64,000 nt of DNA from Actinomycetota bacterium. Its GTDB lineage: Bacteria; Actinomycetota; Actinomycetes; Streptosporangiales; Streptosporangiaceae. Positions within the stretch are counted from its first letter, which is position 1, and each line of letters opens with the position of its first letter. Positions 5,974 through 22,173 of the stretch are shown piece after piece. Both the position numbers and the translations under genes were made by a program. The notes below the pieces were generated by a model. The model saw nothing but the letters and a program-made list of their open reading frames with translations, had not been told where the DNA came from and made no database searches. The DNA is taken from NCBI GenBank assembly GCA_003164955.1, contig PLRW01000247.1, positions 81,403-145,402 of the forward strand, read 5' to 3'.

Positions 5974-6116
5974 ACCCCCGCCACCCAGCCCCGCCCGGCC
6001 CGGGCGCCCCCGGAAACCCAGGGGCGCCCAGATCTCGTCCTGCCGCGCGGCCCACCCCAGTCCGCTACTGACAACAAACGCCCGGCAACAATTGAGAAAA
6101 TAACATCAGATAAGTT

Positions 6117-6166
6117 GACCCGAATGATTTCAGGTATGACCCGAATGATTTCAGGTATGACCCGAA
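6117..6166. repeat. 21-bp tandem repeat, about 2.4 copies, in an AT-richer non-coding stretch
   Basis: GACCCGAATGATTTCAGGTAT at 6117-6137 and 6138-6158, then GACCCGAA. Confidence 0.9.
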
Positions 6167-6920: not shown

Positions 6921-6932
6921 TATTACGTAATA
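6921..6932. promoter_or_regulatory. perfect 12-bp palindrome TATTACGTAATA upstream of the pelF-like operon
   Basis: Seen directly. The core ATTACGTAAT recurs at 22509-22518 upstream of the agd3-like gene. AGATATTACG also occurs at 6658-6667. Confidence 0.35.
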
Positions 6933-7047
6933 CGCATCACATTGGGCGGGGGCCGGGAGAAATGACGCGCGACTGGGGATACGACCATGCCCCGCGAACG
7001 TTCCGGAGCGGGCAACGTGTCCCCCGCAGGCGCAGTGAGCGGGCGGC

Positions 7048-8538
7048 ATGAAGATCGCGATGATGACCGAGGGTACCTACCCGTACAGCTTCGGCGGGGT
7101 GAGCGTATGGTGCGATCAGCTCATCCGCGGCCTGACCGGCTACGACTTCAGCCTGGTGGCGATCGTGGCGACCGGGGCCGAGCGCATGGTGTGGCCGCTG
7201 CCGGGCAACGTTGTCGCGGTCGACAGGGTGCCGCTGTGGAGCACCGCGCCGGCCGGCCCCACGGTGAGCCGCCGGAACGGGCTTCCGGTCGGCCTGCTGC
7301 GCGAGCTCATCGATTCGCTGCTCGATTCCTCCGCCGAGGCCCAGCCCCGGTTCACCGGTGTCCTGCGCGAGCTGTTCGAATTCGCCCAGCGCGGGAACCT
7401 CAGCGCCGCTCTGGGCAGCGACAAGGCCGTACGGCTGCTCAGCGAGGCCTGGATGGAACGGCCGCCGCCCGCCCACTGGCGGACCGCACCTACCCTGCAC
7501 GACGCGGTCAGCGCGATGCAGCTCCTGGACCACGCGCTCCGGCCGCTCTCCTGCCCGCCGCCGCAGGCGGACCTCGCGCACGCGGTGACCAACGGTCTGG
7601 CCGTGCTGCCGGCGCTGGCCGCCAAGTGGCGGTACGGCACGCCGGTGATCGTCACCGAGCATGGGGTGTATCTGCGCGAGCAGTACCTGCAGAACCGCAA
7701 GAGCCCGTACCGGTGGCCGGTCAAGGCGATCTATCTGAGTTTCATGCGCCGCCTCTGCGCGCTGGGCTACAGCGAGGCCGGGGCGATCACCCCGGGCAAC
7801 GTCTACAACCGGCGCTGGGAAGAGCGGCTGGGCGCGAAGCCGGGGCGCATCCGCACCGTGTACAACGGCGTGGACCCGGCGGACTTCCCGGCCCTTTCCG
7901 GCGAGCCCGACGCCCCGACGATCTCCTGGGTCGGGCGGATCGACCCGATCAAGGACGTGGAGACGCTGGTGCGCGCGTTCGCACTGGTGCGCCAGGAGAT
8001 GCCGGCGGCCCGGCTGCGCCTGTTCGGCTCACCGCCCAAGGGCCGGGAGTCTTACCTGGAGCGATGCCAGGCCCTGACCGCAGACCTGGGCATCACCGGG
8101 GCGGTGACGTTCGAGGGCCGGGTCGAGAACATCGCCGACGCCTACGCCGCCGGCCAGATCGTTGCGCTCTCCAGCGTCTCCGAAGGTTTCCCTTACAGCC
8201 TGATCGAGGCGATGACCTGCGGCCGGACCTGTGTCGCCACCGATGTCGGCGGGGTGACAGAGGCCGTAGGGGACACCGGCCTGGTGGTGCCCCCGCGCAA
8301 TCCGAAGCTGATGGCGCGGGCCTGTCTCACCCTGCTGCAGGACGACGATCTCCGGCACCGGCTGGGCACCGCCGCCCGGACCCGGGCGCTGCAGAACTTC
8401 ACCGTGGACGGCGCAATCAGCGCGTTCGACGAGGTCTACAGCCTCGTCAGCGCCGCCCGGCCCGGGCGGCCCGGATGGACCGAGCGGGCCATCGAGGACC
8501 CATCAGACGACCTGCTGCCCTGGAAGGCCGCCAAATGA
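7048..8538 (+). CDS. PelF-type GT4 glycosyltransferase (DUF3492-like N-terminus + GT1/GT4 C-terminal domain)
   Basis: 496 aa. N-terminus MMTEGTYPYSFGGVSVWCDQLIRGL resembles the PelF/DUF3492 signature EG.YPY..GGVS.W. C-terminal retaining-GT motifs are present (SVSEGFPYSLIEAMTCGRTCVATDVGG). Confidence 0.85.
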   Translation: MKIAMMTEGTYPYSFGGVSVWCDQLIRGLTGYDFSLVAIVATGAERMVWPLPGNVVAVDRVPLWSTAPAGPTVSRRNGLPVGLLRELIDSLLDSSAEAQPRFTGVLRELFEFAQRGNLSAALGSDKAVRLLSEAWMERPPPAHWRTAPTLHDAVSAMQLLDHALRPLSCPPPQADLAHAVTNGLAVLPALAAKWRYGTPVIVTEHGVYLREQYLQNRKSPYRWPVKAIYLSFMRRLCALGYSEAGAITPGNVYNRRWEERLGAKPGRIRTVYNGVDPADFPALSGEPDAPTISWVGRIDPIKDVETLVRAFALVRQEMPAARLRLFGSPPKGRESYLERCQALTADLGITGAVTFEGRVENIADAYAAGQIVALSSVSEGFPYSLIEAMTCGRTCVATDVGGVTEAVGDTGLVVPPRNPKLMARACLTLLQDDDLRHRLGTAARTRALQNFTVDGAISAFDEVYSLVSAARPGRPGWTERAIEDPSDDLLPWKAAK

Positions 8539-10028
8539 TCGCGAGAACCCTTGCGGCGCGTGAGCGTACCCGAGTGCCGCCCGGCGCGAACGAGGACCAG
8601 CGGCTCAGGGCCGTCCCCGCCGAGGATGACAAACCGCGTGACCTGGCGGAGCTGTGTGAACAGTTCGTCCTGGTGTGCGAGTCCGCGGTGGATCCCCTGG
8701 AGATATCCAGCGCGCTCGAGTTCGACGGCCTGAACGACCAGGCCGCGCGCGAACTGTACGGCTTCTCCGACGTTTTCGCGCTGGCCGAGGAGATGTACTG
8801 GCGCGTGCCGCGGCAGCCCGCCGAACCGGAGCCGGTGGCCGATCCGTGGCGGATCAGCAAGCTCCGGTCGGCGATGCACGGCCTGATCTATGGTTTGCCC
8901 GCGGTCTGCTTCCCCGCGGCCAGCGGGCTGCTGAACGGCCCCGGTGCGCTCCGTGCGCTGGTCGTCGCGCTGCTCAGCTCCTGGGCCCTGAGCCAGGGAC
9001 TCGCCTATCTCGGGTACGCACGGCTGGGCCGTTCGGACCCGGTTCAGGCCGCCCGGGTGATGCTGCCGGGAATGACCGCAGGCACGGGCGCGACCGCCCT
9101 GGTGATGGCGCTGACCGCGCTGACCGGGCACGTCCACCTGCCGGTGCTCGCGTTCGGCTTCGGGCTGGGGACGTACATGCTGGGCGCCACCGTGCTGATG
9201 GTGCTGGGCGCCGAGCGTCTTCTCCTCATCGTCCTGGCGCCAGCCGTGCTCGGCTCCGCCGCGTTCCTGGCCCTCGGGCGACCGCATTATCTGGAGTACG
9301 CGACCTGGGGAGCCCTGGCCGCCACCCCAGCGCTGGCCCTTGGCCTGGCCACGTGGCGGGCTCGCCGCAAGTCCGGCTTCTTCGGCCGGCGCCGCGGCGC
9401 GACCGCGAAGAAACGGGAGGCGGCCGGCCCGCTGATCACGGCGGCGGACCTGCGTGGCGCGCTGCCGAGCGTCGGGTTCGGGCTGGTCGTCGCCGGGCTG
9501 CTGGTGTTCCCGGTCGCGGCGGCCCTGCCCGGCCGTCCCGATACCGGTGCGCTGATCGCCTCGCTGCCGCTGGCCCTGAGCATGGGCGTGGCGGAGTGGA
9601 CGCTCGTCTGGTTCCGGCGGCGGACGCAACGCCTGCTGCGGGCGACCCGGGAAGTGCCGGTCTTCGCCCACCGGGCCCGGCTGACCTTGTTCACCGCGCT
9701 GCTGCATTATCTGACCGCCGCCGCGCTGCTGACCGCCACCGCGGCCGCGGTGATGATCACGGCGCATCTGATTCACCCGCACTGGACCCTGGCGCCGCAG
9801 ATCGCGGCCTACCTGGCGCTGGGCGGGGCGATGTTCGTCGCGCTGCTGCTGCAGGCCTTCGGCAGCCGCATATTCCCGCTGATCACGTGCGCGGCGGCGC
9901 TGGCCTTCGAGGTCCTCTGGCGCCGCCTGGGGGTGCTCGGGCAGCTCGCGGCCTGTACGGAGCTGCTCGTGACGCTGACTGCCTACGCGGCTCACGTGCT
10001 GGGCAAGGCGGTTCGGCATGCGCCCTAG
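8535..10028 (+). CDS. polytopic integral membrane protein, translationally coupled to the pelF-like gene (candidate PelG-type exporter; family not verified)
   Basis: Start overlaps the upstream stop as ATGA. About 110-aa soluble N-terminus, then roughly 10 or more hydrophobic helices. It is the in-frame C-terminal part of the 6987..10028 ORF, whose N-terminal half is out-of-frame read-through of the GT gene. Confidence 0.65.
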   Translation: MIARTLAARERTRVPPGANEDQRLRAVPAEDDKPRDLAELCEQFVLVCESAVDPLEISSALEFDGLNDQAARELYGFSDVFALAEEMYWRVPRQPAEPEPVADPWRISKLRSAMHGLIYGLPAVCFPAASGLLNGPGALRALVVALLSSWALSQGLAYLGYARLGRSDPVQAARVMLPGMTAGTGATALVMALTALTGHVHLPVLAFGFGLGTYMLGATVLMVLGAERLLLIVLAPAVLGSAAFLALGRPHYLEYATWGALAATPALALGLATWRARRKSGFFGRRRGATAKKREAAGPLITAADLRGALPSVGFGLVVAGLLVFPVAAALPGRPDTGALIASLPLALSMGVAEWTLVWFRRRTQRLLRATREVPVFAHRARLTLFTALLHYLTAAALLTATAAAVMITAHLIHPHWTLAPQIAAYLALGGAMFVALLLQAFGSRIFPLITCAAALAFEVLWRRLGVLGQLAACTELLVTLTAYAAHVLGKAVRHAP

Positions 10029-10170
10029 GCCGTCTACCGGGGGCAACCGGATGGGGTAAGGGGGCTGCTTCCGGGGGGCCGGATTCCTAGGGCACTGGCA
10101 GCGGGCACTCCGCCGCCAGACGTATCAAGCCATCTTTGAATCTTCAAGTTCAACAGGAGGGGAGGCTGCG

Positions 10171-11166
10171 ATGACAGACCAAGTCGCGGTAACGGGGGCC
10201 GAGGGTTTCATCGGCTCGCACCTGGTGGAGGCGCTGGTGCGCCGCGGTAACCGGGTAAAGGCGATGGTGCTCTACAACATGTACAGCTCACAAGGCTGGC
10301 TGGACACGCTCGAGCCCGGCATCAGGGACCAGGTGGACGTGGTCTTCGGGGACGTGCGCGACCCGGCCTCGGTGCGCGAGCTCGTCGAGGGCGCGACGGT
10401 CGTGTATCACCTCGCCGCCCTCGGATCGGTTCCCTACTCCTATAGCGCCCCGCGGTCCTTCGTGGACACGAACGTGATCGGCACGCTGCACGTACTCGAG
10501 GCGGTCCGTGCCTGCCAGACCCCGCGCCTGGTGCACACCTCGACCAGCGAGACGTACGGGACGGCCCGCACCGTCCCCATCAGCGAGGCGCACCAGCCTC
10601 AGGCGCAGTCACCGTACGCGGCATCCAAGATCGCGGCCGACGCGCTGGCCGAGTCTTATTACCTCAGCTTCGGCATGCCCGTGGTCACGCTGCGTCCGTT
10701 CAATACCTTCGGTCCCCGGCAGTCGGCCCGCGCGGTCATCCCGGCGATCATCACCCAGCTCGCGGCGGGAGCCCGGCAGCTCAAGCTGGGCGCGCTCGAC
10801 CCGACTCGCGACTTCTCCTACGTCACCGACACCGCCCAGGCGTTCGTGGACCTCGGTGAGGCGCCGGCCTCAGCGGTGCTCGGCGAGGTGTTCAACGTCG
10901 GCCCGGGAGAGGACGTCTCCATCGGGCAGCTGGCCCATGACATCGCCAGATTCATGGACGTGGACGCCGACATCGTCGAAGACACCCAGCGGCTTCGCCC
11001 CAAGGACTCCGAGGTGATGCGGCTGGTGTGCGACGCCTCCAGGCTGCGCGAGCGCACCGGGTGGCGGCCGCGCTACACCCGCGATGAGGGGCTGCGCGAA
11101 ACCATCGACTGGTTCCGGCAGCCCGGGAACCTGGCCCGCTACAACCCCAGCGAATACAACCGATAA
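10171..11166 (+). CDS. NAD-dependent nucleotide-sugar epimerase/dehydratase (extended SDR)
   Basis: 331 aa. VTGAEGFIGSHLVEAL Rossmann motif, YAASKIAAD catalytic YxxxK, strong RBS AGGAGGGGAGG upstream. Confidence 0.85.
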   Translation: MTDQVAVTGAEGFIGSHLVEALVRRGNRVKAMVLYNMYSSQGWLDTLEPGIRDQVDVVFGDVRDPASVRELVEGATVVYHLAALGSVPYSYSAPRSFVDTNVIGTLHVLEAVRACQTPRLVHTSTSETYGTARTVPISEAHQPQAQSPYAASKIAADALAESYYLSFGMPVVTLRPFNTFGPRQSARAVIPAIITQLAAGARQLKLGALDPTRDFSYVTDTAQAFVDLGEAPASAVLGEVFNVGPGEDVSIGQLAHDIARFMDVDADIVEDTQRLRPKDSEVMRLVCDASRLRERTGWRPRYTRDEGLRETIDWFRQPGNLARYNPSEYNR

Positions 11167-11179
11167 GCGCGGAGGCATC

Positions 11180-11893
11180 ATGCATGCAGTAATTCTCGCC
11201 GGGGGTAAGGGCATCAGGCTGCGGCCCTATACGACGCGGCTCCCCAAACCTCTCGTGCCCATCGGAGACGACCACTCGATCCTGGAGATCGCGCTCTCCC
11301 AGCTCGCCCGGTACGGCTTCGACCGGGTCACGCTGGCCATCGGCCACTTCGGCGAGCTGATCCGGTCCTACATCGGTGACGGCAGCCGGTGGGGCCTCAG
11401 CGTCGACTACACCGACCTGGAGGAGACGCCGCTGGGCACGATGGGACCGGTCCTGCAGATCCTCGACCGGCTGCCCGAGCAGTTCCTGGTCATGAACGGC
11501 GACATACTGACCGATCTTGACTTCTCGGACCTGATGCGGCGGCACGCGGCATCGGACGCGCCGCTCACGGTGGCGACGTACCAGCGCGAGGTACGCATCG
11601 AATACGGCGTGCTGACCACCAAAGACGATCACGTGGTGAAGTTCACCGAGAAGCCGACGATCGACTACCGGGTCAGCATGGGCGTTTATGCGTGCAACCG
11701 GCGAGCCCTGGCCAAGTACACACCCGGGCTGCCGTTCGGCTTCGACGAGTTCGTCCTGGACATGCTGGCCGGTGACACTCCCCCGCAGGAGTACGCGTTC
11801 AAGGGCTACTGGTTCGATATCGGCCGCCCGGAGGACTACGACCGGGTCAATGCCGAATTCGGGCTCCTCCGGGAAAGCCTGCTGGGGGCCTAG
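11180..11893 (+). CDS. sugar-1-phosphate nucleotidyltransferase
   Basis: MHAVILAGGKGIRLRPYTTRLPKPLVPI signature. Start chosen at the internal ATG 11180, which has GGAGG 5 nt upstream. The track ORF starts at 11084 and overlaps the previous gene. Confidence 0.85.
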   Translation: MHAVILAGGKGIRLRPYTTRLPKPLVPIGDDHSILEIALSQLARYGFDRVTLAIGHFGELIRSYIGDGSRWGLSVDYTDLEETPLGTMGPVLQILDRLPEQFLVMNGDILTDLDFSDLMRRHAASDAPLTVATYQREVRIEYGVLTTKDDHVVKFTEKPTIDYRVSMGVYACNRRALAKYTPGLPFGFDEFVLDMLAGDTPPQEYAFKGYWFDIGRPEDYDRVNAEFGLLRESLLGA

Positions 11894-11896
11894 GCG

Positions 11897-12799
11897 ATGC
11901 GTCTCATGGTTATCGGTGCGAGCGGGTTCCTCGGTGCGCACGTGCGGCGCCAGGCCTCGGCGGCCGGGGCGGAGGTGGTGACGGCCGGCCGCTCCAGGCT
12001 GGCCGATTCACCCCGCCACCGGTTCATCGACCTCGCCGAAGAGGATCCAGCCCAGCTCGCGGCGGTGATCACGGAGGTGGCTCCGGACGCCGTGGTGAAC
12101 TGCGCCGGAGCGACCTCCGGGCCGCCGGAGGCGCTGGCTGCGGCCAACGTCACCGGCGCCTACACGCTGACGAAGGCCATGCTCCTGACCCGGCGGCGGC
12201 CGCGGCTCGTGCATCTGGGATCCGCCGCCGAGTACGGGCGCGCCGAGCCCGGGGTCCCGGTGACCGAGCAGGTCACTCCCCGGCCCGGCGCGATCTACGG
12301 CGTCACCAAGCTAGCCGGTACCCGGCTGGTGGAGCTGGCCGCGGCGGCCGGGCTCGACGCCGTGGTGCTGCGGGTCTTCAACCCCGTAGGCCCGGGAGCA
12401 CAGCAGGCCAGCCTGCCGGGCCGGCTGATCGCCGAGCTGCGCCAGGCGTCCTGGCAGGGAACCGACGTGCGGCTCGGGTCGCTGGACGCCGTCCGCGACT
12501 TCGTCGACGTGCGGGATGTCGCCGACGCCGCGTTCGCCGCCGCGGCCGCGGCGGCGCTCCCGCACACTGTGCTCAACATCGGCAGCGGGCGGGGAGTGCC
12601 CGTCCGTGCGATGGTCAAGCAGCTTCTCGCGATCAGCGGATGCACGAGCACGGTGCACGAGGATACGCAGGGGCCGGCGCGATCACCCGACATCCCCTGG
12701 CAGCAAGCCGACATCAGCCGCGCCGTCGCCGACCTGGCCTGGACGCCGCGCCGTGACCTGGAGACTTCGCTGACCGACCTGTGGGAGGCGACCCCGTGA
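11897..12799 (+). CDS. NAD(P)-dependent nucleotide-sugar epimerase/reductase (SDR)
   Basis: 300 aa. MVIGASGFLGAHV Rossmann motif and YGVTKLAG YxxxK. Confidence 0.8.
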   Translation: MRLMVIGASGFLGAHVRRQASAAGAEVVTAGRSRLADSPRHRFIDLAEEDPAQLAAVITEVAPDAVVNCAGATSGPPEALAAANVTGAYTLTKAMLLTRRRPRLVHLGSAAEYGRAEPGVPVTEQVTPRPGAIYGVTKLAGTRLVELAAAAGLDAVVLRVFNPVGPGAQQASLPGRLIAELRQASWQGTDVRLGSLDAVRDFVDVRDVADAAFAAAAAAALPHTVLNIGSGRGVPVRAMVKQLLAISGCTSTVHEDTQGPARSPDIPWQQADISRAVADLAWTPRRDLETSLTDLWEATP

Positions 12800-13497
12800 C
12801 CCCGCGCGCCGCGGACGGCTCCGAGCTGGTCAGGCCGCAGTTGATCGTCCCGGCGTATTTTCACCCGGCGACCCATCCGGGCGAGTGGGCGTGGCTGGCC
12901 GCCCGCGCCGCACAGATCAGGATGATCGTGCTCAACCTGGCCGACGGGCCGGGCGCCCAGCCCGACGCCGCCCTGTTCCCGGTGCTGGACCGGCTGCGTT
13001 CCGCCGGGGTGACGGTGGCCGGGTACGTGGACACCGACTACGGCCACCGCCCGGTGTACGACGCCGTGGCCGATCTCACCCGGTTCGCGGGGTGGTACCA
13101 GGTCGACGGCGTGTTCTTCGACCGGGCCGCCGTGGCCGCCGGGGATGTCGGCTATTACGCGGACCTGGCCCGCCAGGCGCGGGATACGGGCGTGCGCCTG
13201 GTGGCGTTCAACCACGGTTCCCACCCGATCGAGGCGTACGCCGAGCACGCCGACCTGCTCGGCACGTTCGAGGGCCCCTGGACCGCTTACCTGGAGCTGA
13301 CGGTGCCGCGCTGGGTGCGGGCGCGGCCAGCCGGGCAGTTTTTTCACCTGCTGCACTCGGTGCCGGTCTCGTCGTTCGAGGACGCCACCTGGCTGGCGGC
13401 CCGGCGCAACGCCGGCTGTGCGTTCGTGACCGACCAGGGCGGGGAGAATCCCTGGGACCGGCTGCCGGACGGCGCTTTCGACCGGCAGCCACAGTAA
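12781..13497 (+). CDS. spherulation-specific family 4 (Sph3/GH135-like) protein, no signal peptide
   Basis: 238 aa. LIVPAYFHP...WAWL...MIVLNLADGPG...GYVDTDYGHRP...WYQVDGVFFDRAA. An alternative GTG start at 12796 gives a GTGA overlap with the upstream stop. Confidence 0.8.
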   Translation: MGGDPVTPRAADGSELVRPQLIVPAYFHPATHPGEWAWLAARAAQIRMIVLNLADGPGAQPDAALFPVLDRLRSAGVTVAGYVDTDYGHRPVYDAVADLTRFAGWYQVDGVFFDRAAVAAGDVGYYADLARQARDTGVRLVAFNHGSHPIEAYAEHADLLGTFEGPWTAYLELTVPRWVRARPAGQFFHLLHSVPVSSFEDATWLAARRNAGCAFVTDQGGENPWDRLPDGAFDRQPQ

Positions 13498-13600
13498 GCC
13501 CCGGCCTGCTGGCCGCGCATCGAGCAGCCCGCTGCCCAGCGTAGTCTTGCCATGACCAATGGCCTGACGTGCGCATACTTGATGTGAGGCTCGCCTGAGC

Positions 13601-14515
13601 ATGCACGGGAAACCGAACAGGCAGGCTCCCGGCGGACTCCCGGCTCTCACCCCCCGGCGGCTTGCCGTCGTCCTGTCCGCCGTCCTGGCCGTCGCGGCCG
13701 GTGCCGTCGCGGTATACGTGGCCACCGGGTCCCGGTCGGGCTGCCAGGAAGCGTTCGTGCCCGCCTACTTCTACCCGGGCGCCGGCTGGACGCAGGCGAT
13801 TACCAGCAAACCACCGCCCAGCGTCATGATTCTCGACGTCACCAGTTCGGGCGCGGGCAGTTCACCGAACCGGAATTACCAGGCCGCCGTCAAGCGCGCG
13901 CAGGGCGCCGGGATCACGGTCATGGGTTACGCCAGCACGGACTACGCGCGGCGTCCCGCCGCGGCGGTCGAGGCGGATGTCTCGCATTACCGGTCCTGGT
14001 ACCACGTGACCGACGTCTTCCTCGACGAGGCATCCAGCAACGGCGGCGCGGCCGCCTATTACCAGCGCCTGACCAGCTACATCCACGACGTAGACCCGGG
14101 CTCGAAGGTGATGCTGAACCCCGGCACCTATCCCGACCAGCGGTACATGTCGATCGGCGACATCGTTCTGGTGTACGAGAATACCTACGCCCGTTACGTC
14201 AAGCTCCGCGTGCCCGGCTGGGTCCGCAATTATCCCGCGGCCAAATTCGCGTATGCCATTTACGCCACCCCGGGCTCGGAGCTGGCCGGCGCGATCAGCC
14301 TGTCCCGGCAGCGGAACGCCGGCTACATCTACGTGACCAGCAATTCCGGTGCGAACCCGTACAGGTCACTGCCCGCCTACTGGCCGGGCGAGAATGCGAT
14401 CATCGCCGGATGCGCGCGCGCCAGCACGTCGTCCGCCGGCGCCCCGGGCCCAGCCGGAACCGGAGCGGGTCAATCTACCGGCAAGGATGGCGCGGCCCGG
14501 CGAGAGCCGACGTGA
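13601..14515 (+). CDS. spherulation-specific family 4 (Sph3/GH135-like) protein with N-terminal membrane anchor
   Basis: 304 aa. TM segment LAVVLSAVLAVAAGAVAVYVA, then FVPAYFYPGAGW...MILDVTSSGAGS...GYASTDYARRP...WYHVTDVFLDEAS. Confidence 0.8.
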   Translation: MHGKPNRQAPGGLPALTPRRLAVVLSAVLAVAAGAVAVYVATGSRSGCQEAFVPAYFYPGAGWTQAITSKPPPSVMILDVTSSGAGSSPNRNYQAAVKRAQGAGITVMGYASTDYARRPAAAVEADVSHYRSWYHVTDVFLDEASSNGGAAAYYQRLTSYIHDVDPGSKVMLNPGTYPDQRYMSIGDIVLVYENTYARYVKLRVPGWVRNYPAAKFAYAIYATPGSELAGAISLSRQRNAGYIYVTSNSGANPYRSLPAYWPGENAIIAGCARASTSSAGAPGPAGTGAGQSTGKDGAARREPT

Positions 14516-15551
14516 ACAGCGTCCCGTCAATGCGGCCCGAGGTGTCGGCCGGGCAGAAATGGCCGAGGTCCGCGGCGGCGTCGCGGCCCCAGTCATCGGT
14601 GTACTCCGCGTCCAGAACGAGCTTTCCGGCCCGGACGTACGGCGGCGTCACGATCCCGCACGTCTGGTAGTAGCCGCATTCCTCGGTCAGCAGGAAGTCG
14701 GTGGTGGGCTCGAGCGCCGCCGAGAACGCCGGGTCGTTATCCCCGTTCTTCTGCCCCCACGCCAGGCCGAGGTGGTGGGCGTAGGCGGCGAGGGTGCGGT
14801 CATACGCCTCGCTGCGCGCCTCGGTGATCGGGAAACCGGTGCTGTCGGTGTACGAATCGTCGATATCCGGCTCGACCGCGTCGAAATCCTTGCCCGCGCA
14901 TTGCTGCCGGATCATCGACTCGATGATCGCCGTCGTGGACGCCGCCGTGATGTTGAGGTATTTCTCCGGGTACCCCGGCACCGCGCGGCCCAGATCACCG
15001 GCGGCCTGCAGCTGGTCGTAGTAGGTGACCGCGCCGCCCTCGTCGGCGGCCGAATAGTAGTTCCCGGCCGAGCCGACCTCGATGTAACAGATCACTTTGC
15101 TCCCTCGCCGGTGCAGCGCGGCCACCACGGAAGCGGAGCTGAGGATGCCGTCGATGTCGTACAGGCCCACCCGGGGCGCCAGCCGACCGGCCGCGTTCAG
15201 CACCCCGTTGCCCATATCCAGTTCGCTGCCGGTGCTCAGTGGGTGGTCTAGTTCCCACTGGAATTCCGGCCCATTGTCCGGGCCGGCGTCCGAGGGATGC
15301 CACCAGGCGTGCGCCGTGGGCCCGTGCCCGGCGGGAGAGGTCGCGGGCCTGGTGGCGTGCCCCCCCGGCGGCGGCGGCGCCGTGGGGGCCGCCGTGGCCG
15401 CTGTCGCGGCTGCCGTTGCTCCTGCCGCCGCCGCGGCCGGGGTGGCATGGGCCGTGGCCGGGGCCGCCGACGGCGTCGGCCGGGAGGCCCCGCTGCCGCA
15501 TCCAGCCAGCAGCAGGCCCATCCCGGCCATGACGATCGCGGTCTTCCTCAT
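14475..15551 (-). CDS. GH114 endo-alpha-1,4-polygalactosaminidase-like lipoprotein (Ega3 / PelA-hydrolase-domain type)
   Basis: 358 aa. Lipobox LLLAGC. FQWELDHPL..., GLYDIDG..., KVICYIEVGSAG..., DAVEPDIDDSY... fit the Glyco_hydro_114 pattern as I remember it. Confidence 0.8.
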   Translation of the reverse strand: MRKTAIVMAGMGLLLAGCGSGASRPTPSAAPATAHATPAAAAAGATAAATAATAAPTAPPPPGGHATRPATSPAGHGPTAHAWWHPSDAGPDNGPEFQWELDHPLSTGSELDMGNGVLNAAGRLAPRVGLYDIDGILSSASVVAALHRRGSKVICYIEVGSAGNYYSAADEGGAVTYYDQLQAAGDLGRAVPGYPEKYLNITAASTTAIIESMIRQQCAGKDFDAVEPDIDDSYTDSTGFPITEARSEAYDRTLAAYAHHLGLAWGQKNGDNDPAFSAALEPTTDFLLTEECGYYQTCGIVTPPYVRAGKLVLDAEYTDDWGRDAAADLGHFCPADTSGRIDGTLFTSALAGPRHPCR

Positions 15552-15648
15552 GAACGTCGCGTCCCCGCCCGCGTGTGGAGAGCCGGCCAGCCCGGCCGTG
15601 GCCCTGCGATGATACGCGGGGCCACTCCCGCCGTCCCGCCGCGGGCCG

Positions 15649-16197
15649 CTACCCCTGTGGCTCGCTGACCTGCACCGGCGCGGGCGGGTTGGCCGCCGCG
15701 GTCACCTCGGTGATGTCGCCGTTGCCCGTGGCGAGCAGGGCGCCGGCCGGGCCGGGGTTCCCGCTGCTGATCTGCGTGCCGGCCTTCCCGACGTCATTCA
15801 GGCCGGCCCGGTAGATCGCCGCATCCACCGGGGGCATGGGGCCGCCGAGTGCGGTCCGCACGTCCGCCGCCAGCTGGGCGCCGGCACTCTTCGCCGCGCC
15901 GGACTGGCGGGCCCGCTGGGCGGCGCTGAGCTTGCCCAGGTCGACGTTGACGGCCGCGAGAAGCTGGCCGGCCGGCCCGGTGACCCATTTGGCCCCCTTG
16001 GTCACGGCGGGCAGCGCCGCGGCGGACGGCCGGCTCGCGGTCTTCCCCCCGCCGACGCCGGCCACGACGCCGGCCACCAGGGCGGCGAGCAGGACCGGGA
16101 TCAGCGTGGCCAGAACCTTGTTCCGGCGCACCCACGACCCGCCGGGCCACTGTCGCGTTCCGGGCCCGGTGGCCCATTGTTCCATCGACGTTGTCAC
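15649..16197 (-). CDS. hypothetical single-pass membrane-anchored protein
   Basis: 182 aa. One TM (VLATLIPVLLAALVAGVVAGV) and an Ala/Gly-rich ectodomain. Lies between the agd3-like and GH114 genes on the same strand. Confidence 0.5.
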   Translation of the reverse strand: MTTSMEQWATGPGTRQWPGGSWVRRNKVLATLIPVLLAALVAGVVAGVGGGKTASRPSAAALPAVTKGAKWVTGPAGQLLAAVNVDLGKLSAAQRARQSGAAKSAGAQLAADVRTALGGPMPPVDAAIYRAGLNDVGKAGTQISSGNPGPAGALLATGNGDITEVTAAANPPAPVQVSEPQG

Positions 16198-16287
16198 GAT
16201 CGTTTCCCCTTTTTTCTTCTGGCTGGCCGCCCAATGGGGTCCCGGCGCATTCGCCGGGACCCCACCGGGCCTCGTGAACTGGCTTGG

Positions 16288-19200
16288 TTAGCTGACCGTC
16301 AGGGTGAAGGTCTGCGTGGCCGAGCCGATCGAGTTCTTGGCCGTGATCGTGAGAACGTAGGTGCCGGCCTTGGTCGGAATCCCGATCAGGGTGGCCGTCC
16401 CGTTGACGAGGTTGAGGTAGACCAGCCCCGGCACGCTGCCGGTGTGCGTGACGCTCGCCGCGGGGTAACCGACGCTGGTGAACGTGAAGGCATAGAGCTT
16501 CCCGTGTGCCACCGTCGCCGTCGCGGCGCTGGTGATCGCCGGAGCCTGGTCCACCGTCAGCGTGAAGGCCTGGCTGGCCGTCCCGCCGCTGTTGGTCGCC
16601 GTGATCGTGAACTTGTAGACGCCGCCCTGGTCGACTCCGGGCGTCCCGGCCAGGGTGGCCGTGCCGTTGCCGTTGTCAGTCCAGGTCACGCCCTGCGGCA
16701 GCGAGCCCGCTTCGGCCAGGGCCGGGGCGGGTGCCCCGGTCGTATTGACCGTGAAGGAGAAGCCGGAGCCGTCGGTGGCCGTGGCGGTGGCCGCCGAGGT
16801 GATCGCCGGGGCGCCGGTGACGGTCAGGACGAACGACTGGGTGGTCGTTCCGCCCGTGTTCGCCGCGGTGAACGTGACCGGGTAGGTCCCGGCACTGGCC
16901 GCTGTCGGTGTCCCGGTCAGCGTGGCCGTCCCCTTGCCGCTGTTGGTGAAGGTGACACCGGCCGGCAAGGCCCCACTGTGGGTCACGTTGGTGGTGTAAC
17001 TGGTCGGGCTGCCCACCGTGGTGACCGTGAAGGAGAACGCCTTGCCCGTCGCCGCGGTCGCCGCCGCCGCGCTGGTGAACGTCGGCACCTTGACCGTGCC
17101 GGCCGCCTTGACGGTCAGGGTGATCGTCTGGCTGGCGGTGCCGCCGCTGTTGGTGGCGGTGACCGGCACGGAGTAGGTACCGGCCGTGATCGCGGTCGTG
17201 CCGGACAGCGATCCGGTCCCGTTGCCGTTGTCGGAGAAGCTCACCCCGCCCGGCAGGGTGCCGGCCTTGAGTGCCGCCGCCGGGTAGCCGGTCGTGGCCA
17301 CGGTGAAGGTGAACGCCGTGCCCGCCGTCTCGGTGACGGCCGCGGCGCTGCTGAAGGCCGGCGCGTTGGTGACCGTCAGGGTGAACGCCTGGCTGGCGGT
17401 ACCCGTGGCGTTCTTGGCCGTGATGGTCAGCGGGTAAGCGCCCTTGGCGGCCGCCGTCGGCGTACCGGCCAGGGTAGCTGTCCCGTTGGTGTTGGCGGTG
17501 AAGGTGATGCCCGGCGGCAGCGTCCCGACGTGGGTCAGGGCCGGCGCCGGGGTGCCCGTGGTGGTCATCGTGAAGCTGAACGCCGTCCCCGAGGTCGCCG
17601 TGGCCGTGGCCGCGCTGGTGATGGCCAGCCCGCTGTTGACGGTCAGGACGAAGGCCTGGGTGGCCGTCCCCGTCGCGTTCTTGGCCGTGAGGGTCACTCG
17701 GTAGGTACCCTGGCTGCCCGCTGGCGGCGTGCCGGCCAGGGTGGCCGTGCCGTTGCCGTTGTCCTTGAACGTGACCCCGGACGGCAGAGCCGGGCTGCTG
17801 GTGGCGGACAGCGCCGCCACCGGGATCCCCGTGGTCGTCACCGAGAACGTCCCCGCCGAGCCGGCCGCGAAGGTCGCCGCGCCGGCACTGGTGATCGTCG
17901 GGGCCACCGGCGCCGGGTTCACGGTGATCGTGAAGTTCTGCGTCGCGTTGGAGCCGACCCCGTTGGCCGCCGTGATCGTGATCGGGTAACTGCCCTTGCT
18001 GCCCGCCGCCGGGGTGCCGGCCAGGGTGGCCGTCCCGTTGGTGTTGTCGATCAGCGTGACGCCGGACGGCAGCGTACCGGACTCGGTGATCGCCGCAGTC
18101 GGGCTGCCGGTGGTGGTCACCGGGAACGTGCCCTGCGTGCCCTCGGTGAAGGTCGCCGAGCCGCCGCTGGTGATCGCCGGCGCCGTGGGGGCCGCGTTCA
18201 CGGTCAGCGTGAAGCTCTGCGTCGCGTTGGGGCTCCCCCCGTTCGCCGCCGTGATCGTGATCGGGTAACTGCCCTTGCTGCCCGTCGCCGGGGTGCCGGC
18301 CAGGGTGGCCGTCCCGTCGCCGTTATCGGTCAGCGTGACGCCGGACGGCAGCGTGCCGGACTCGGTGATGACGGCCGTGGGGCTGCCGGTGGTGGTCACC
18401 GTGGACGTGCCGGGCGTGCCCTCGGTGAAGGTCGCCGAGGCCGCGCTGGTGATCGCCGGGGCTTGCGCGACCGTGATGGTCAGGGTCTGCGACGCCGTGC
18501 CGTAGCCGTTGACCGCGCTCAGCGGGATGGCGTAAGTGCCCGGGGTGGTCGGCGTGCCGGAGAGCGTCGCCGTTCCGTCCTTGTTGTCGGTGAAGCTCAC
18601 GCCCGCCGGCAGGTTGGAATCACTCCAGCTGGGCGCGGGATAGCCACCCGCCGTGGCGGTGAAGGAGAACGCCGATCCGGCCGTGGCCGTCGCGGTGCTG
18701 GCGCTGGTGAAGGCCGGCGCGTCACCGACCACGACCGTGTAGGTCTGGGTCGCGTCCGGGCTTATCCCGTTGCTGGCCGTGATGGTCAGGGTGGCCGTAC
18801 CGGTGGCGGTGGCGGTGCCCGAGAGCAGGGCGGTGCCGGTGCCGTTGTCGGTGAAGGTCAGCCCGGCGGGCAGCGTGCCCGTCTCTGTGATCTTCGCCGT
18901 CGGTGATCCCGTCGCGGTGATCGCGGCGGCCCCCGCCGAATTCAGCGTGAAGTTGGCGGTCGACCCGCTGGTGATGGTGGGCGCGGTCGCGGTGTTCACC
19001 GTGATGGTGAGCGCCAGTGTCGCGGTACTGGCCGAGGAGTTGGTGGCCGAGATGGTCACCGGGTAGGTGCCCGCCGTCCCGGCGGTGCCGGCGATGGTGG
19101 CGGTGCCGTCCTTGTTGTCCGTGAACGTCAGCCCGCTGGGCAGCGTCCCGGATTCAGTGATGGTCGCCGCCGGGGACCCGGTGGTGGTGACGGTGTACGT

Positions 19201-22173
19201 CCCCGCCACTCCGGTGCTGAAGGAGGCTGTGCTCGGGCTGGTGATGCTCGGAGCCTCGCTGTTGGTCAAGGTGAAGCTCTGGCTCACGCCGCCGACGCTG
19301 TTGGCCGCCGTGATCGTGATCGGGAAGCTGCCGCCGCTGGCCGCCGCGGCCGTGCCGGCGATCGTGGCGGTGCCGTTGCCGTTGTCGGTGAACGTGATGC
19401 CCGCGGGCAGCGCACCGGTCTCGGTCAGCGCCGGAGCCGGGGCGCCGGTCGTGGTGACCGTGAAGCTGAACGGGGAGCCCGCGATCGAAGACGCGGACGC
19501 AGCGCTGGTGATGGTGGGCAGAACGTTCTCGGTGAGGGTCTCGGTGGACCCGGTGCCGAGGTTGACCCAGTCCGACAGCTCACCGCCGTAGGCCTGGCCG
19601 AACGCCGCGTTGTTGACGGTCGTGCCGGTCGGCACGGTCACCGGGACGTTGACGCCGGAGCCGCCGTTGGTGACGGTGACCACGCCGTTGGTCTCGGTCG
19701 CGCTGACCTTCCCGGCGGTGCTGGCCGTGGTCCAGGCGGCTTGCTTGGCCAGGACCTGCGCCTCGGTGGCATCGGTCATCTGGGTGATCGGGGCCGTGCT
19801 GGTGTACCAGCTGTTGTACTGGCTCAGCATGTTGTCGATCAGGCGCAGGATGGTGTAGCCCTCGTCCTGGCCGCTCGCGTCGGTGGCCGGGCCGATCAGG
19901 TTGGTCTGGTGGGCGTAGCCGACCCGGGGATCGTTGTCGAGCACGTGGCTCAGCATGATGTGCGACTCGGAGGCCAGCAGGTCAGCCTCGGTGGCCGGCG
20001 TGGTGCGGCAGGTGGTCGCCGAGGTGTCCGTGCAGTGGCCGGTCTCACTCGGGAATTGCGTGCTGCCGAGCGAGTCGCCCTGCGCCACGTAGAGCGAGTT
20101 GTACTCGTTCAGCTCGTCGGTGAAGTTGTCGGCGTTGTAGTAGATGTTGCTGGGGTACCGGGGCGCCCCGAGAGCGGCCCCGAGCGAGTACTGCTGGGGC
20201 TGGCGGGAGGCGTCCTGGGCGAAGGTGGTGACACCCACCCCGGCCAGGGCGGCCGGCATGTTCGGGTTCTCGATCCCGGAGTGCTCGCCGGTGACGACCA
20301 CGGCCGGGCTGTAGTTGGTGAGCTTGTTCGCCTGGGCGAAGGCCTGGTCCAGCCCGATCTCCTGCTCGATGGAGGAGTCGGCGGTGGTGCTGGTGGCGGG
20401 CAGCCAGCTACCGGCGGCGCTGGAGCAGTCGATGCCGGGGTTGGTGGCGGTGGGGAAGCCCGGGCCCGAGTTGGGCGCCGCACCCGCTGTGACCCCGTTG
20501 TCGGTGAAGCTGTAGGTGGTCGAGGCCGTCGCCGCCGTGTTCTCTGCTACCTGGCCGACCAGCCCGTAGGTGGTCGAGCCGGGGTCCTCGCGGTACACGT
20601 TGTAACCCCAGAAGCCGGTGCCGCCGGTGTGGCTGGCCTCTTCCTGAGCCAGGGTGGGTCCTGCGGTGCCGTCGGTGCCGGTGCCGTTCGTGGCCTCGGG
20701 CCAGGTCAGCGTGACCGACCCATTGGCCCCGACGGTGGCCGCCTGCGGTACCGAGGGCTCCGACTCCCCGTATGCGGTGGCCGCGGTCACCTCGTAGTTG
20801 TAACCACCCGCGGCAAAAGTCCCGCCCGACGAGTTGGCCACCACCGAGGTGACGGCCTGGGGCTGCCACACGGTACAGCCGAGGAACAGGTGCGACCAGG
20901 TATGGGTCATCCAGTTGAAGCTGCCCTGGTTGGCGAGGAGGGCGTTGACGAACGCCGTGTCGTTGGGGGCGCTGGGGTCCGCGACCACGCCGGGATCGGT
21001 GTACGTGGCCCCGTTCTCGGTGACGCTACCGGTGCAGTTGGCGTTCGACGCGGTGGTGCAGGCGCCGACCGCGTTGAAGGCGAGGTTCAGCGTGATTCCG
21101 GTCTGCTTCTCCCACGCGACCACGTAGGCCACGTCGGTCGCGCTCATCTGGACGTCGGCGGGCACGCCGGTCGCCGATCCCGGGGTCACGCCCTGGTCCG
21201 CGACCGGGCAGTTGTAGTCGGGCGGCTCGGTCGCCGCGGGCGTGCACTGGAACTGCGAGCTCCACTCGTTGTCGGCGATGAAGAGGTCGTCGATGTCCTG
21301 GCCGAAGTAGTTGCGGTACAAGCCCAGGTGGGTGTCGTTGGTGACCCAGTTGATGAGCCCGGGGGCCAGCAGCAGCCACTGTTCCTGGGTGGCGTTGTAG
21401 TCAAAGTTCAGCGCCAGCTCCGAGACCCCCGCCTGGGGATCCGTGCTCGGGTGCTGATACACGCCCGCCATGGTGTCACCGGCCGAGTTGTTCAGGAACG
21501 ACGTGTACGGAGCCCCGGCGGTGACCGTGCCCGTGTAGCCGTAGCTGCCGGTGTCGAACGGGATCGGGCCCTTGAGCTCGGGGAAGGCGGCCAGGCCGGC
21601 GCTGGTCAGCGTGCCGGTGGTGCCGTCCAGGGGCCCGCCGGTCAGGTCGGTCACGCCCAGGGCGGGGGCGGGGTACATGTAGCCGTCCACCTGGCGCACG
21701 CCGAAGGTGGACTCGTAGGTGTCCAGCGCGCTCAGCTGGCCCGCGGCGAAGCCGTCGGGCGAGTCGGCGATGACGGCGCCGTTGTAGTTGCCCGTGGTGC
21801 CGCTGGACAGCGCGGGCAGCGTGACGGTCTCGCTCCCGTAGGCCCCGGTGGCCGTGACCTCGTCGTAGGCGACGCCCTCGCTCTTCAGGGCCGCCTCCCA
21901 GGCCGCCGTGGTGACGTCGGCCGATCCGCTGCCGATCAGCAAGATCTTCAGGTTCAGCGTCGGCGAAGTGGCCGCCGCGGCCACAGCGGCGATGGAGGCG
22001 GTCACCCCCGTCGCCGCCAGCCCGGACGCAGTCAGAACCGTCACCAGGAACGCGGCCAGCCATGCTGCCGCCCTGCTCCTATATCTGCTCAACGAACTTC
22101 CCCCCACGAAATCCGGGGAAATGCCCCCGGCCGCAGCACAGCCCCGAAGGCAGTGCAGTACTAAAAAGTGCAT
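16288..22173 (-). CDS. giant secreted protein: Agd3/CE18-like polysaccharide deacetylase module (with FN3-like insert) + 12 Ig-like (He_PIG-type) repeats
   Basis: 1961 aa. Signal/anchor segment AAWLAAFLVTVLTASGLAATG; the start may be GTG at 22107. Metal-deacetylase-like motifs GQDIDDLF (D293-D296) and MTHTWSHL (H424, H428). From residue ~886, 12 repeats of 86-93 aa with consensus APAITSA..A.F..G....F.V.TTG.P.....E.G.LP.GVTFTDNGNGTATLAGTP....G.Y..TITA.N..G.A.Q.FTLTV. No LPXTG motif. Confidence 0.8.
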   Translation of the reverse strand: MHFLVLHCLRGCAAAGGISPDFVGGSSLSRYRSRAAAWLAAFLVTVLTASGLAATGVTASIAAVAAAATSPTLNLKILLIGSGSADVTTAAWEAALKSEGVAYDEVTATGAYGSETVTLPALSSGTTGNYNGAVIADSPDGFAAGQLSALDTYESTFGVRQVDGYMYPAPALGVTDLTGGPLDGTTGTLTSAGLAAFPELKGPIPFDTGSYGYTGTVTAGAPYTSFLNNSAGDTMAGVYQHPSTDPQAGVSELALNFDYNATQEQWLLLAPGLINWVTNDTHLGLYRNYFGQDIDDLFIADNEWSSQFQCTPAATEPPDYNCPVADQGVTPGSATGVPADVQMSATDVAYVVAWEKQTGITLNLAFNAVGACTTASNANCTGSVTENGATYTDPGVVADPSAPNDTAFVNALLANQGSFNWMTHTWSHLFLGCTVWQPQAVTSVVANSSGGTFAAGGYNYEVTAATAYGESEPSVPQAATVGANGSVTLTWPEATNGTGTDGTAGPTLAQEEASHTGGTGFWGYNVYREDPGSTTYGLVGQVAENTAATASTTYSFTDNGVTAGAAPNSGPGFPTATNPGIDCSSAAGSWLPATSTTADSSIEQEIGLDQAFAQANKLTNYSPAVVVTGEHSGIENPNMPAALAGVGVTTFAQDASRQPQQYSLGAALGAPRYPSNIYYNADNFTDELNEYNSLYVAQGDSLGSTQFPSETGHCTDTSATTCRTTPATEADLLASESHIMLSHVLDNDPRVGYAHQTNLIGPATDASGQDEGYTILRLIDNMLSQYNSWYTSTAPITQMTDATEAQVLAKQAAWTTASTAGKVSATETNGVVTVTNGGSGVNVPVTVPTGTTVNNAAFGQAYGGELSDWVNLGTGSTETLTENVLPTITSAASASSIAGSPFSFTVTTTGAPAPALTETGALPAGITFTDNGNGTATIAGTAAAASGGSFPITITAANSVGGVSQSFTLTNSEAPSITSPSTASFSTGVAGTYTVTTTGSPAATITESGTLPSGLTFTDNKDGTATIAGTAGTAGTYPVTISATNSSASTATLALTITVNTATAPTITSGSTANFTLNSAGAAAITATGSPTAKITETGTLPAGLTFTDNGTGTALLSGTATATGTATLTITASNGISPDATQTYTVVVGDAPAFTSASTATATAGSAFSFTATAGGYPAPSWSDSNLPAGVSFTDNKDGTATLSGTPTTPGTYAIPLSAVNGYGTASQTLTITVAQAPAITSAASATFTEGTPGTSTVTTTGSPTAVITESGTLPSGVTLTDNGDGTATLAGTPATGSKGSYPITITAANGGSPNATQSFTLTVNAAPTAPAITSGGSATFTEGTQGTFPVTTTGSPTAAITESGTLPSGVTLIDNTNGTATLAGTPAAGSKGSYPITITAANGVGSNATQNFTITVNPAPVAPTITSAGAATFAAGSAGTFSVTTTGIPVAALSATSSPALPSGVTFKDNGNGTATLAGTPPAGSQGTYRVTLTAKNATGTATQAFVLTVNSGLAITSAATATATSGTAFSFTMTTTGTPAPALTHVGTLPPGITFTANTNGTATLAGTPTAAAKGAYPLTITAKNATGTASQAFTLTVTNAPAFSSAAAVTETAGTAFTFTVATTGYPAAALKAGTLPGGVSFSDNGNGTGSLSGTTAITAGTYSVPVTATNSGGTASQTITLTVKAAGTVKVPTFTSAAAATAATGKAFSFTVTTVGSPTSYTTNVTHSGALPAGVTFTNSGKGTATLTGTPTAASAGTYPVTFTAANTGGTTTQSFVLTVTGAPAITSAATATATDGSGFSFTVNTTGAPAPALAEAGSLPQGVTWTDNGNGTATLAGTPGVDQGGVYKFTITATNSGGTASQAFTLTVDQAPAITSAATATVAHGKLYAFTFTSVGYPAASVTHTGSVPGLVYLNLVNGTATLIGIPTKAGTYVLTITAKNSIGSATQTFTLTVS
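16291..19518. repeat. coding tandem repeat array (12 units of 258-279 nt) inside the giant gene
   Basis: Repeat boundaries counted on the protein (residues 886-1961). Units 5 and 6 (17905-18462) are near-identical. Confidence 0.85.

Follow-up and report, generated by a model that had tools for sequence, protein, structure and literature searches.

A probable actinobacterial exopolysaccharide locus pairing a PelF-type glycosyltransferase with fungal-type processing enzymes

Cationic, partly deacetylated polymers of alpha-1,4-linked N-acetylgalactosamine (GalNAc), namely bacterial Pel and the galactosaminogalactan (GAG) of moulds, are major adhesins and biofilm scaffolds. Does a locus at positions 7048 to 22173 of an actinobacterial contig encode a system of this kind? 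The locus lies in a 64,000-nucleotide stretch, hereafter the window, of an Actinomycetota bacterium assigned to the Streptosporangiaceae (assembly GCA_003164955.1, contig PLRW01000247.1, positions 81,403 to 145,402); all coordinates below are those of the window. An earlier note, made from the letters alone, had read it as a hybrid in which a PelF-type glycosyltransferase (GT) of family GT4 is combined with the processing enzymes of the fungal GAG cluster. We followed this up with profile searches, comparisons with solved structures, structure prediction and a survey of gene neighbourhoods. Overall, the interpretation was supported, each component falling in its proposed family by profiles, solved structures and catalytic residues, and we consider it probable, though well short of certain, that the locus encodes a synthase-dependent exopolysaccharide system of the Pel/GAG kind.

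Since the G+C content of the window is ~70%, raw lists of open reading frames (ORFs) were swamped by shadow frames, and genes were selected by their third-position GC (0.85-0.94). Ten genes were supported between 7048 and 22173, seven on the plus strand (g1 to g7) and three on the minus strand (g8 to g10). They form two convergent operons, the 3' ends of g7 and g8 sharing 41 bp, and all of the genes listed in the earlier note were recovered at their positions. The first, g1 (7048..8538, plus strand), encodes the presumed polymerase, a 496-aa cytoplasmic PelF-type GT4 glycosyltransferase with no transmembrane (TM) segment. It matches DUF3492 (183 bits over the full profile) and Glycos_transf_1 (102 bits) of Pfam, and it passes the NCBIfam PelF equivalog model NF038011 with 162 bits (cut-off 100), covering profile positions 2-489 of 489. 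The EX7E motif of GT4 enzymes reads EGFPYSLIE. The protein shares 54% identity with an annotated pelF product on a Streptomyces californicus plasmid and 25-29% with proteobacterial PelF. An ATGA overlap at 8535-8538, read in the sequence, joins g1 to g2, so that the proposed coupling of a PelF-type GT4 to a polytopic membrane protein holds.

Hydrolases of the fungal type follow in both operons. Two paralogues match the Spherulin4 profile of Pfam (cut-off 30), g7 (13601..14515, plus strand; 304 aa) with 138 bits and g6 (12796..13497, plus strand; 233 aa), joined to g5 by a GTGA overlap, with 107 bits; the best solved relative of both is Sph3 (5D6T; 1e-15 for g7 and 6e-7 for g6), as expected of GH135 (glycoside hydrolase family 135) enzymes. 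The motifs FLDE/YENTY of g7 and FFDR/FEGPW of g6 align with FFDE/FEATY of Sph3, which carry the catalytic Asp and Glu, 56 residues apart. We take the catalytic Asp of Sph3 to be Asp166. Both the Sph3 pair and the Ega3 pair (Asp189/Glu247) were taken from PMC12054363, section 3.4 of which prints the former as Asp196/Glu222; the 56-residue spacing of the alignment fits Asp166/Glu222, and the printed residue is probably a typographical slip. The two paralogues differ in topology. The g7 protein has an N-terminal membrane anchor (TM segment at aa 18-44), as does Sph3, and its orthologues likewise carry a hydrophobic anchor by hydropathy. In g6, neither a signal peptide nor a TM segment was found, and by hydropathy only, a hydrophobic leader is lacking both here and in the g6-type orthologues of about 75 related loci; judged from sequence, g6 is apparently cytoplasmic. 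The GH114 candidate, g8 (14475..15551, minus strand; 358 aa), scores 147 bits with Glyco_hydro_114 of Pfam (cut-off 27), has Ega3 (6OJ1, 7e-16) as its best solved relative and carries a lipobox, LLAGC, with Cys18. Its VEPD and TEEC motifs align on VDPD and NEQC of Ega3 with the spacing of D189/E247, and it is an endo-alpha-1,4-galactosaminidase-like lipoprotein of the Ega3 type, as had been proposed. The products of g6, g7 and g8 thus carry the intact catalytic residues of GH135 and GH114 and are predicted hydrolases.

The weakest claim beforehand concerned g10 (16288..22173, minus strand), which encodes a giant protein of 1961 aa whose N-terminal motifs had been likened to those of the deacetylase Agd3, of carbohydrate esterase family CE18. 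A signal or anchor at aa ~35-64 precedes the N-terminal module (aa ~67-866; 19576..21975, minus strand). The CBM87_Agd3 profile gave 27.7-31 bits (31 bits at aa 75-183) at a cut-off of 27.6. Neither a phmmer search of the single N-terminus against the PDB, which returned no Agd3 match, nor a narrow profile built from 21 close orthologues, which returned nothing at E<=1, reached Agd3 directly. Numerous orthologues of 60-82% identity exist, from Kitasatospora, Streptomyces, Kutzneria, Pseudonocardiaceae and many metagenome-assembled genomes (MAGs); among those aligned (60-77% identity), 21/21 match CBM87 and 16/21 match Agd3_CE. Two clear Agd3-type genes were found on a plasmid of Deinococcus aquaticus, and the protein encoded by one of them matches both Agd3 (6NWZ, 1.3e-10) and the window's g10 (3e-18 and 3e-9). 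With these two paralogues, and only once they were added, a profile of g10 and ten actinobacterial orthologues reached 6NWZ at 1.3e-27, covering chain residues 27-264, 403-509 and 520-678, that is, CBM87, catalytic and C-terminal parts.

This family alignment also places the catalytic residues. The catalytic motifs (CM1-CM4) of Agd3 hold the base/metal Asp pair D377/D378, H510/H514, R613 and the acid His H668 (PMC7229062). These correspond in g10 to D295/D296 (in DIDDLF), H424/H428 (HTWSH, an HxxxH motif), R672 (APRYP) and H755 (YAHQTNL), and Y620 of Agd3 corresponds to Y679; M666 is replaced by Tyr. The mapped residues are invariant across the 21 orthologues, those of CM1-CM4 are likewise unchanged in the Deinococcus proteins, and the CM1-CM2 spacing is 128 residues in g10 versus 132 in Agd3. 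The N-terminal ~800 aa of g10 are therefore a predicted Agd3/CE18 deacetylase with the three-domain layout (CBM87, CE18 and C-terminal beta domain) and all catalytic residues, and the claim has held. A clade-specific insertion between motifs 2 and 3 (aa 436-595; 20389..20868, minus strand) adds ~100 net residues, measuring 152-161 residues in orthologues versus 48-57 in the Deinococcus proteins. The alignment of 21 sequences yielded only an unusably poor AlphaFold model of the module (mean predicted local distance difference test, pLDDT, 47), the insertion being its sole well-predicted part (pLDDT 78-89, beta strands); it is beta-rich and possibly FN3-like. The C-terminal region (aa ~867-1961; 16291..19575, minus strand) consists of 12 Ig-like He_PIG repeats (249 bits over 12 stretches). 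Their number varies, orthologues being about 800-1500 aa long and g10, at 1961 aa, the longest seen. A 279-bp tandem unit at 17708-18459 (2.7 copies, 83% identity) corresponds to neighbouring He_PIG repeats, and this sequence pattern suggests a recent expansion.

Two further observations concern relatives of g10. On the Streptomyces californicus plasmid, a 715-aa "hypothetical protein" encoded 5' of pelF (L005, 13715-15862) has no Pfam match and shares 28% identity with the Agd3-type module of g10 by tblastn, and the Agd3 clade of compact loci (described below) appears to escape current Pfam models. In Kitasatospora sp. MAP12-15 (1940800-1963865), a giant Agd3-Ig orthologue of 63-64% identity stands alone and not beside a pelF cluster, its neighbours being a pectate-lyase-like gene, a NicO transporter and a urease operon.

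With g10 placed, all three of the fungal-type processing enzymes that the earlier note had listed are present with their catalytic residues (g10, g8 and g7/g6). To determine how consistently they accompany the synthase genes, we scanned one genome per GTDB species for the g2 family, obtaining at least 510 loci/species genomes, many of them from Streptomyces, and counted genes in the 64 retrieved loci whose 10-kb flanks were nearly complete. PelF and g2 occur in all 64 and adjoin each other in every one; GH135 occurs in 63, an Agd3-like gene in 49, GH114 in 45 and g3 in 33. The figure of 49 is an undercount, the Agd3-like gene of window-type loci falling past the flank. Since the genes are co-conserved in dozens of genomes, a chance association is excluded. 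The window-type layout was found in Streptosporangiaceae-like MAGs. A compact, one-strand layout (agd3-like, pelF, g2, optional sugar module, GH135, GH114) is that of Streptomyces, Kitasatospora, Kutzneria and Micromonosporaceae, and also of the Streptomyces californicus plasmid; here the GH135 copy is always of the leaderless g6 type, and copies of the g7 type are always anchored. The Deinococcus aquaticus plasmid has the same module without GH135 and with two Agd3-type genes. In relatives at 67-76% identity, the giant Agd3-Ig gene also adjoins pelF-g2, in a different orientation. The closest genome matches of g2 (62-67% identity) come from uncultured Actinomycetota and Streptosporangiaceae MAGs, and identical contigs are present in soil and wood metagenomes. 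In two Acidimicrobiaceae MAGs (L026 and L027), two inverted pelF-g2 pairs flank one sugar-module and GH135 block, a duplication of the synthase pair inside a single locus.

Which sugar is polymerised? The private module of one nucleotidyltransferase and two extended short-chain dehydrogenases/reductases (SDRs) was borne out by Pfam and NCBIfam. The first SDR, g3 (10171..11166, plus strand), is a predicted, LegB-like nucleoside diphosphate (NDP)-sugar 4,6-dehydratase: it scores 437 bits with NCBIfam LegB, slightly under the cut-off of 475, its Deinococcus orthologue is annotated LegB, 4,6-dehydratases dominate its PDB matches, and its motif STSETYG has a dehydratase-type Glu. In 4-epimerases of the SDR family, Ala or Val stands in place of this Glu. 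The sugar-1-phosphate nucleotidyltransferase g4 (11180..11893, plus strand; 237 aa) matches NTP_transferase of Pfam with 127 bits; among NCBIfam models it comes closest to guanylyl- and uridylyltransferases, with scores far short of every cut-off. The second SDR, g5 (11897..12799, plus strand), most resembles NDP-4-keto-6-deoxyhexose 4-reductases of the RMD type. Its best PDB match is GDP-6-deoxy-D-lyxo-4-hexulose reductase (2PK3, 2.4e-25), followed by GDP-6-deoxy-D-mannose reductase (6X3B), and the match to E. coli GalE is far weaker (~1e-13). A 4-epimerase of the Uge3/GalE type was not found in the cluster, GalE models giving 134 and 100 bits on g3 and g5 against a cut-off of 262. From these matches, g4, g3 and g5 look like a nucleotidyltransferase, a 4,6-dehydratase and a 4-ketoreductase that would carry an NDP-sugar through a 4-keto-6-deoxy intermediate to an NDP-6-deoxy sugar. 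Since the module is optional across relatives, with g3 present in roughly half of their loci (33/64), it may supply an extra or alternative monomer and not be essential to the core.

These enzymes bear directly on the strongest rival explanation, in which Pel/GAG-like machinery makes a chemically different polymer, e.g., of a 2-acetamido-2,6-dideoxy-hexose (FucNAc or QuiNAc type) or of another 6-deoxy sugar from g3-g5. The LegB-like score of g3 (437 bits with a GDP-GlcNAc 4,6-dehydratase model) and its dehydratase-type Glu, the kinship of g5 with 4-keto-6-deoxyhexose reductases, the lack of a GalE/Uge3-type epimerase in the cluster, a GlmS-like aminotransferase that joins the module in one relative, and the retention of the module from Actinomycetota to Deinococcus all speak for it. 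Against it, the core is the same in loci without g3 and so is independent of the module, the substrate specificity of SDRs and nucleotidyltransferases is unreadable from sequence, UDP-GalNAc could come from a housekeeping GalE encoded elsewhere, and Ega3, Sph3 and Agd3 have been shown to act on GalNAc/GalN only (GalN, galactosamine). We give this explanation a small chance, well behind a polymer of the Pel/GAG kind. About the same small weight is due to a more specific proposal, in which the product would be a 6-deoxy-hexosamine-containing analogue, made from an NDP-6-deoxy-HexNAc that g4, g3 and g5 provide, and the synthase would consist of PelF, a new exporter of the MOP superfamily and a cytoplasmic GH135. 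In relatives, a GlmS-like gene (L096, 1926-3770; L095, 1847-2749), which encodes a glutamine amidotransferase with a SIS domain or SIS alone, separates the sugar-nucleotide genes from the spherulin-4 gene, and this suggests a dedicated hexosamine supply. In some canonical proteobacterial pel operons on plasmids, from Paraburkholderia, Burkholderia thailandensis and Pseudoalteromonas, a GH114 gene directly follows pelG (L007, 12007-12906; L090, 5540-6451; L091, 5365-6189), followed in Paraburkholderia by galE and glmS. A hexosamine polymer is indicated both by the GlmS-like gene inside a related cluster and by the glmS and galE genes next to a canonical pel operon.

The second partner of the synthase, g2 (8535..10028, plus strand), is a 497-aa membrane protein with 12 TM helices, the presumed exporter and partner of PelF. 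It has no Pfam or NCBIfam match and no PelG match even at E<=10, and its Streptomyces and Deinococcus orthologues are likewise unmatched, whereas the Pfam PelG model gives 514 bits on a genuine PelG. The possibility that g2 is a divergent PelG was ruled out at the sequence and profile level, alignment of the g2 family with five PelG sequences by hhalign giving a probability of 0.14%. An AlphaFold2 (AF2) model (pLDDT 77.6; predicted TM-score, pTM, 0.70) shows 6+6 TM helices after a small cytoplasmic helical domain at aa ~37-90. Searched against the PDB with Foldseek, its top 40 matches all belong to the MOP superfamily (WzxE 9G9N at 8.6e-5, MATE proteins, MurJ), with probabilities of 0.99-1.00 and TM-scores of 0.35-0.51. 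Two bundles of six TM helices, as characterise the MOP superfamily, are present in this predicted structure of moderate confidence; no MOP family of Pfam was matched at the sequence level. The model thus assigns g2 a MOP (Wzx/MATE/MurJ) fold, and presumably g2 fills the role that PelG has in Pel, though it lies outside the PelG family as currently defined. The "bacterial synthase type" of the earlier note accordingly stands for PelF (162 bits with the equivalog model) and does not stand for its partner, which shares with PelG the MOP fold only. By exhaustive profile search, the g2 family comprises 911 clusters at 50% identity. Among the best 150 of these 911 matches, all are bacterial-sized except one PelF-g2 fusion, a database protein of 974 aa (P0241) with DUF3492 and GT1 at 2-454 and a g2-type membrane module at 509-973. 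From its sequence, this fusion may be genuine or may reflect a one-base error at an ATGA-type overlap.

The fold of g2 is also the starting point of a second rival, a lipid-carrier route of the Wzx type, in which short units with a 6-deoxy sugar, built on undecaprenyl phosphate, would be flipped by g2 and attached to the wall or to proteins as a wall glycopolymer or a glycan, with no chain extruded by a synthase. The lipid III flippase WzxE is the best structural match of g2, MurJ is also among the matches, no PelG relation is detectable, and O-antigen and S-layer glycan clusters typically contain a deoxy-sugar module with a dehydratase and a reductase. However, an initiating phosphoglycosyltransferase, a Wzy polymerase, a chain-length regulator and a ligase were all missing from the cluster and its flanks, which hold one glycosyltransferase only, and that one scores above the cut-off of the PelF equivalog. 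A MOP fold is equally compatible with a Pel-like model, PelG being a member of the MOP/PST group, and three processing enzymes that in fungi are specific for long alpha-1,4-GalNAc/GalN chains are co-conserved. We regard it as unlikely, somewhat more so than a different polymer. Still less likely is the proposal that g7, g8 and g10 are aimed mainly at a foreign polymer (fungal GAG or bacterial Pel), for nutrition or antagonism, with only a secondary link to the glycosyltransferase: the secreted endo-galactosaminidase reported for Streptomyces griseus (as cited in PMC7229062 and PMC12054363), the stand-alone g10-type gene of Kitasatospora and the soil and wood habitats shared with GAG-producing fungi are in its favour, but GH135 and PelF-g2 occur together in 63/64 loci, mostly in one operon, one GH135 paralogue is apparently cytoplasmic, g7 is anchored and g8 a lipoprotein so that neither is freely secreted, and the operon holds biosynthetic sugar-nucleotide genes while no sugar-uptake or catabolic genes are in the cluster.

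For a synthase-dependent system of the Pel/GAG kind, we infer the following order of steps and polymer chemistry. In the cytoplasm, g1 would polymerise an amino-sugar nucleotide, and g2, translationally coupled to it, would pass the chain outward at the membrane. A private NDP-sugar, probably a 6-deoxy-hexose or 6-deoxy-hexosamine, would be supplied by g4, g3 and g5. The leaderless g6 is probably active on the cytoplasmic side, either on the synthase complex or together with it. Outside the membrane, the CE18 module of g10 would partly de-N-acetylate the polymer, rendering it cationic and adhesive, and the 12 Ig-like repeats may serve to hold the enzyme in the wall or to set its spacing there. 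Release or remodelling would follow from cleavage of acetylated stretches by the anchored, Sph3-like g7 and of deacetylated ones by the Ega3-like lipoprotein g8; the enzymology of Agd3, Ega3 and Sph3 on alpha-1,4-GalNAc/GalN is published (PMC7229062 and PMC12054363). The predicted topology, with a lipobox in g8, a membrane anchor in g7 and a signal or anchor in g10, would fit cell-associated processing.

Several points weigh against this reading. A synthase-dependent mechanism is not proven: g2 shows no detectable kinship with PelG in sequence, and the solved structure closest to its model is that of the flippase WzxE, which acts on lipid-linked oligosaccharides. No role is established in such systems for a glycoside hydrolase in the cytoplasm. 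For g10, Pfam Agd3_CE gives only 12 bits on the protein alone, under threshold, and its CE18 membership rests on orthologues and on a family profile that includes two Deinococcus sequences; moreover, a g10-type gene stands alone in one Kitasatospora (L093). The sole nucleotide-sugar enzymes of the cluster look 6-deoxy-type, unlike the UDP-GlcNAc 4-epimerase of Pel and GAG. Since the private module has this character and lacks a 4-epimerase, a GalNAc/GalN product is not secured, and the polymer may not be plain GalNAc/GalN.

The remaining features concern regulation and surroundings. The third minus-strand gene, g9 (15649..16185), encodes a small single-pass membrane protein (TM segment at aa 26-54) that is Ala/Gly-rich outside the membrane; it matched nothing in Pfam or NCBIfam and is restricted to window-type loci (6/64). 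Searches of the cluster and its immediate flanks against Pfam and NCBIfam found no PelD or PelE homologue and no GGDEF, GAF or TPR protein, in keeping with the earlier statement that no c-di-GMP (cyclic di-GMP) receptor of the PelD/PelE kind is seen. Upstream of g1 lies a 1.19-kb non-coding leader (5857..7047, plus strand), presumably a promoter or regulatory region, in which no frame has coding-type third-position GC and whose G+C content is below that of its surroundings. Riboswitches and other Rfam families gave no match in the window, and a c-di-GMP or other riboswitch in the leader was rejected as a candidate, with no Rfam match there at gathering score or at E<=1. Nor was a sigma-70/promoter or terminator consensus found in it. 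The leader is 100% identical in four metagenome contigs (the same organism in different samples), and no nucleotide-level conservation was found in other genomes. The flanks encode unrelated metabolism, namely FAD and SDR oxidoreductases downstream and, upstream, phenylacetate-type catabolism and a protein of the metallo-beta-lactamase fold; the boundaries given to the cluster earlier are therefore right. At 574-5856, a PaaX-family regulator, an enoyl-CoA hydratase, a weak PaaA/PaaC-like protein and the metallo-beta-lactamase-fold protein make up a block for aromatic-acid catabolism that has no relation to the polysaccharide genes.

How does the locus relate to known systems? It resembles Pel of Pseudomonas aeruginosa (PelABCDEFG) and its proteobacterial kin in having a PelF-family GT4 beside a 12-TM MOP-type protein and in its expected product, a partially de-N-acetylated cationic polymer. 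It differs in that PelD (the c-di-GMP receptor), PelE, PelA (GH166 and CE4), PelB and PelC were not found with Pfam and NCBIfam, in that processing falls to GH114, GH135 and CE18 instead of PelA, and in that the partner is not a detectable PelG homologue; in the canonical Pel operons that we fetched, PelD lies upstream of PelF, with PelE and PelG. The Bacillus cereus operon pelDEA(DA)FG, which encodes PelD, PelE, PelG and a PelA-type deacetylase under c-di-GMP control (Whitfield et al., 2020; PMC7112168), is likewise Gram-positive, synthase-dependent and centred on PelF, with no outer-membrane components, whereas none of PelD, PelE, PelG, a PelA-type deacetylase or c-di-GMP control was found in our locus. 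In the GAG cluster of Aspergillus fumigatus (uge3, gtb3, agd3, ega3, sph3), Agd3 corresponds to g10, Ega3 to g8 and Sph3, also membrane-anchored, to g7, and the compact Streptomyces locus matches it in the number and kinds of functions, the epimerase excepted. In contrast to GAG, the synthase comprises two chains, a soluble PelF-type GT and a membrane protein, where fungal Gtb3 is a protein of ~300 kDa, a dehydratase/reductase module replaces the Uge3-type 4-epimerase, an extra, apparently cytoplasmic GH135 is present, and the deacetylase is fused to Ig repeats.

Closest of all are operons already described in silico. Agd3 homologues of 45 bacterial species were reported by Bamford et al. (2020; Nat Commun 11:2450, PMC7229062), who name soil Terrabacteria, Actinobacteria and Deinococcus-Thermus among them, as hosts. 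In the operons that their Figure 8c depicts from in silico analysis, the Agd3 gene is accompanied by genes for a cytoplasmic glycosyltransferase, a membrane protein with multiple spans and GH114, joined in Actinobacteria by spherulin-4; the authors took the bacterial operons to support a bacterial origin of the GAG cluster. Our locus is alike in its Agd3 homologue with CBM87, catalytic and C-terminal domains, its GT, membrane protein, GH114 and spherulin-4, and differs in a larger Agd3 protein (CE insertion and 12 Ig repeats) and a convergent two-operon layout. The locus is a member of a class predicted in 2020 and adds no new principle beyond that prediction; the text consulted, unlike the present analysis, does not name the PelF type, the MOP fold, the leaderless GH135 or the deoxy-sugar module. 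The earlier note had called the combination experimentally uncharacterised. As a gene combination it is not new, being described in silico, widespread and frequent among soil actinomycetes, but a limited literature search found no experimental study of such an actinobacterial system. Added here are the identification of the GT as PelF-type and of its partner as a MOP-fold protein outside PelG, the probable 6-deoxy-sugar module, the near-universal leaderless GH135 and the unusual architecture of the deacetylase.

The cluster belongs to a large group, in Actinobacteria and Deinococcus, that pairs a Pel-type polymerase with fungal-type processing enzymes, and it bears on the proposed bacterial origin of the fungal GAG cluster. 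Gtb3 might have its unfused counterpart in the pair of PelF and MOP protein, which could also represent the ancestral form of that fungal synthase; such systems would offer experimentally accessible, unfused GAG machinery. If the leaderless GH135 is indeed an obligatory intracellular subunit, it would provide a bacterial model for the unexplained need for Sph3 in fungal GAG synthesis. The locus raises specific questions, open to test, about its exporter family, its apparently cytoplasmic GH135 and the sugar that its module provides, and work on a tractable Streptomyces version could explain pellet and aggregate formation in industrial fermentations.

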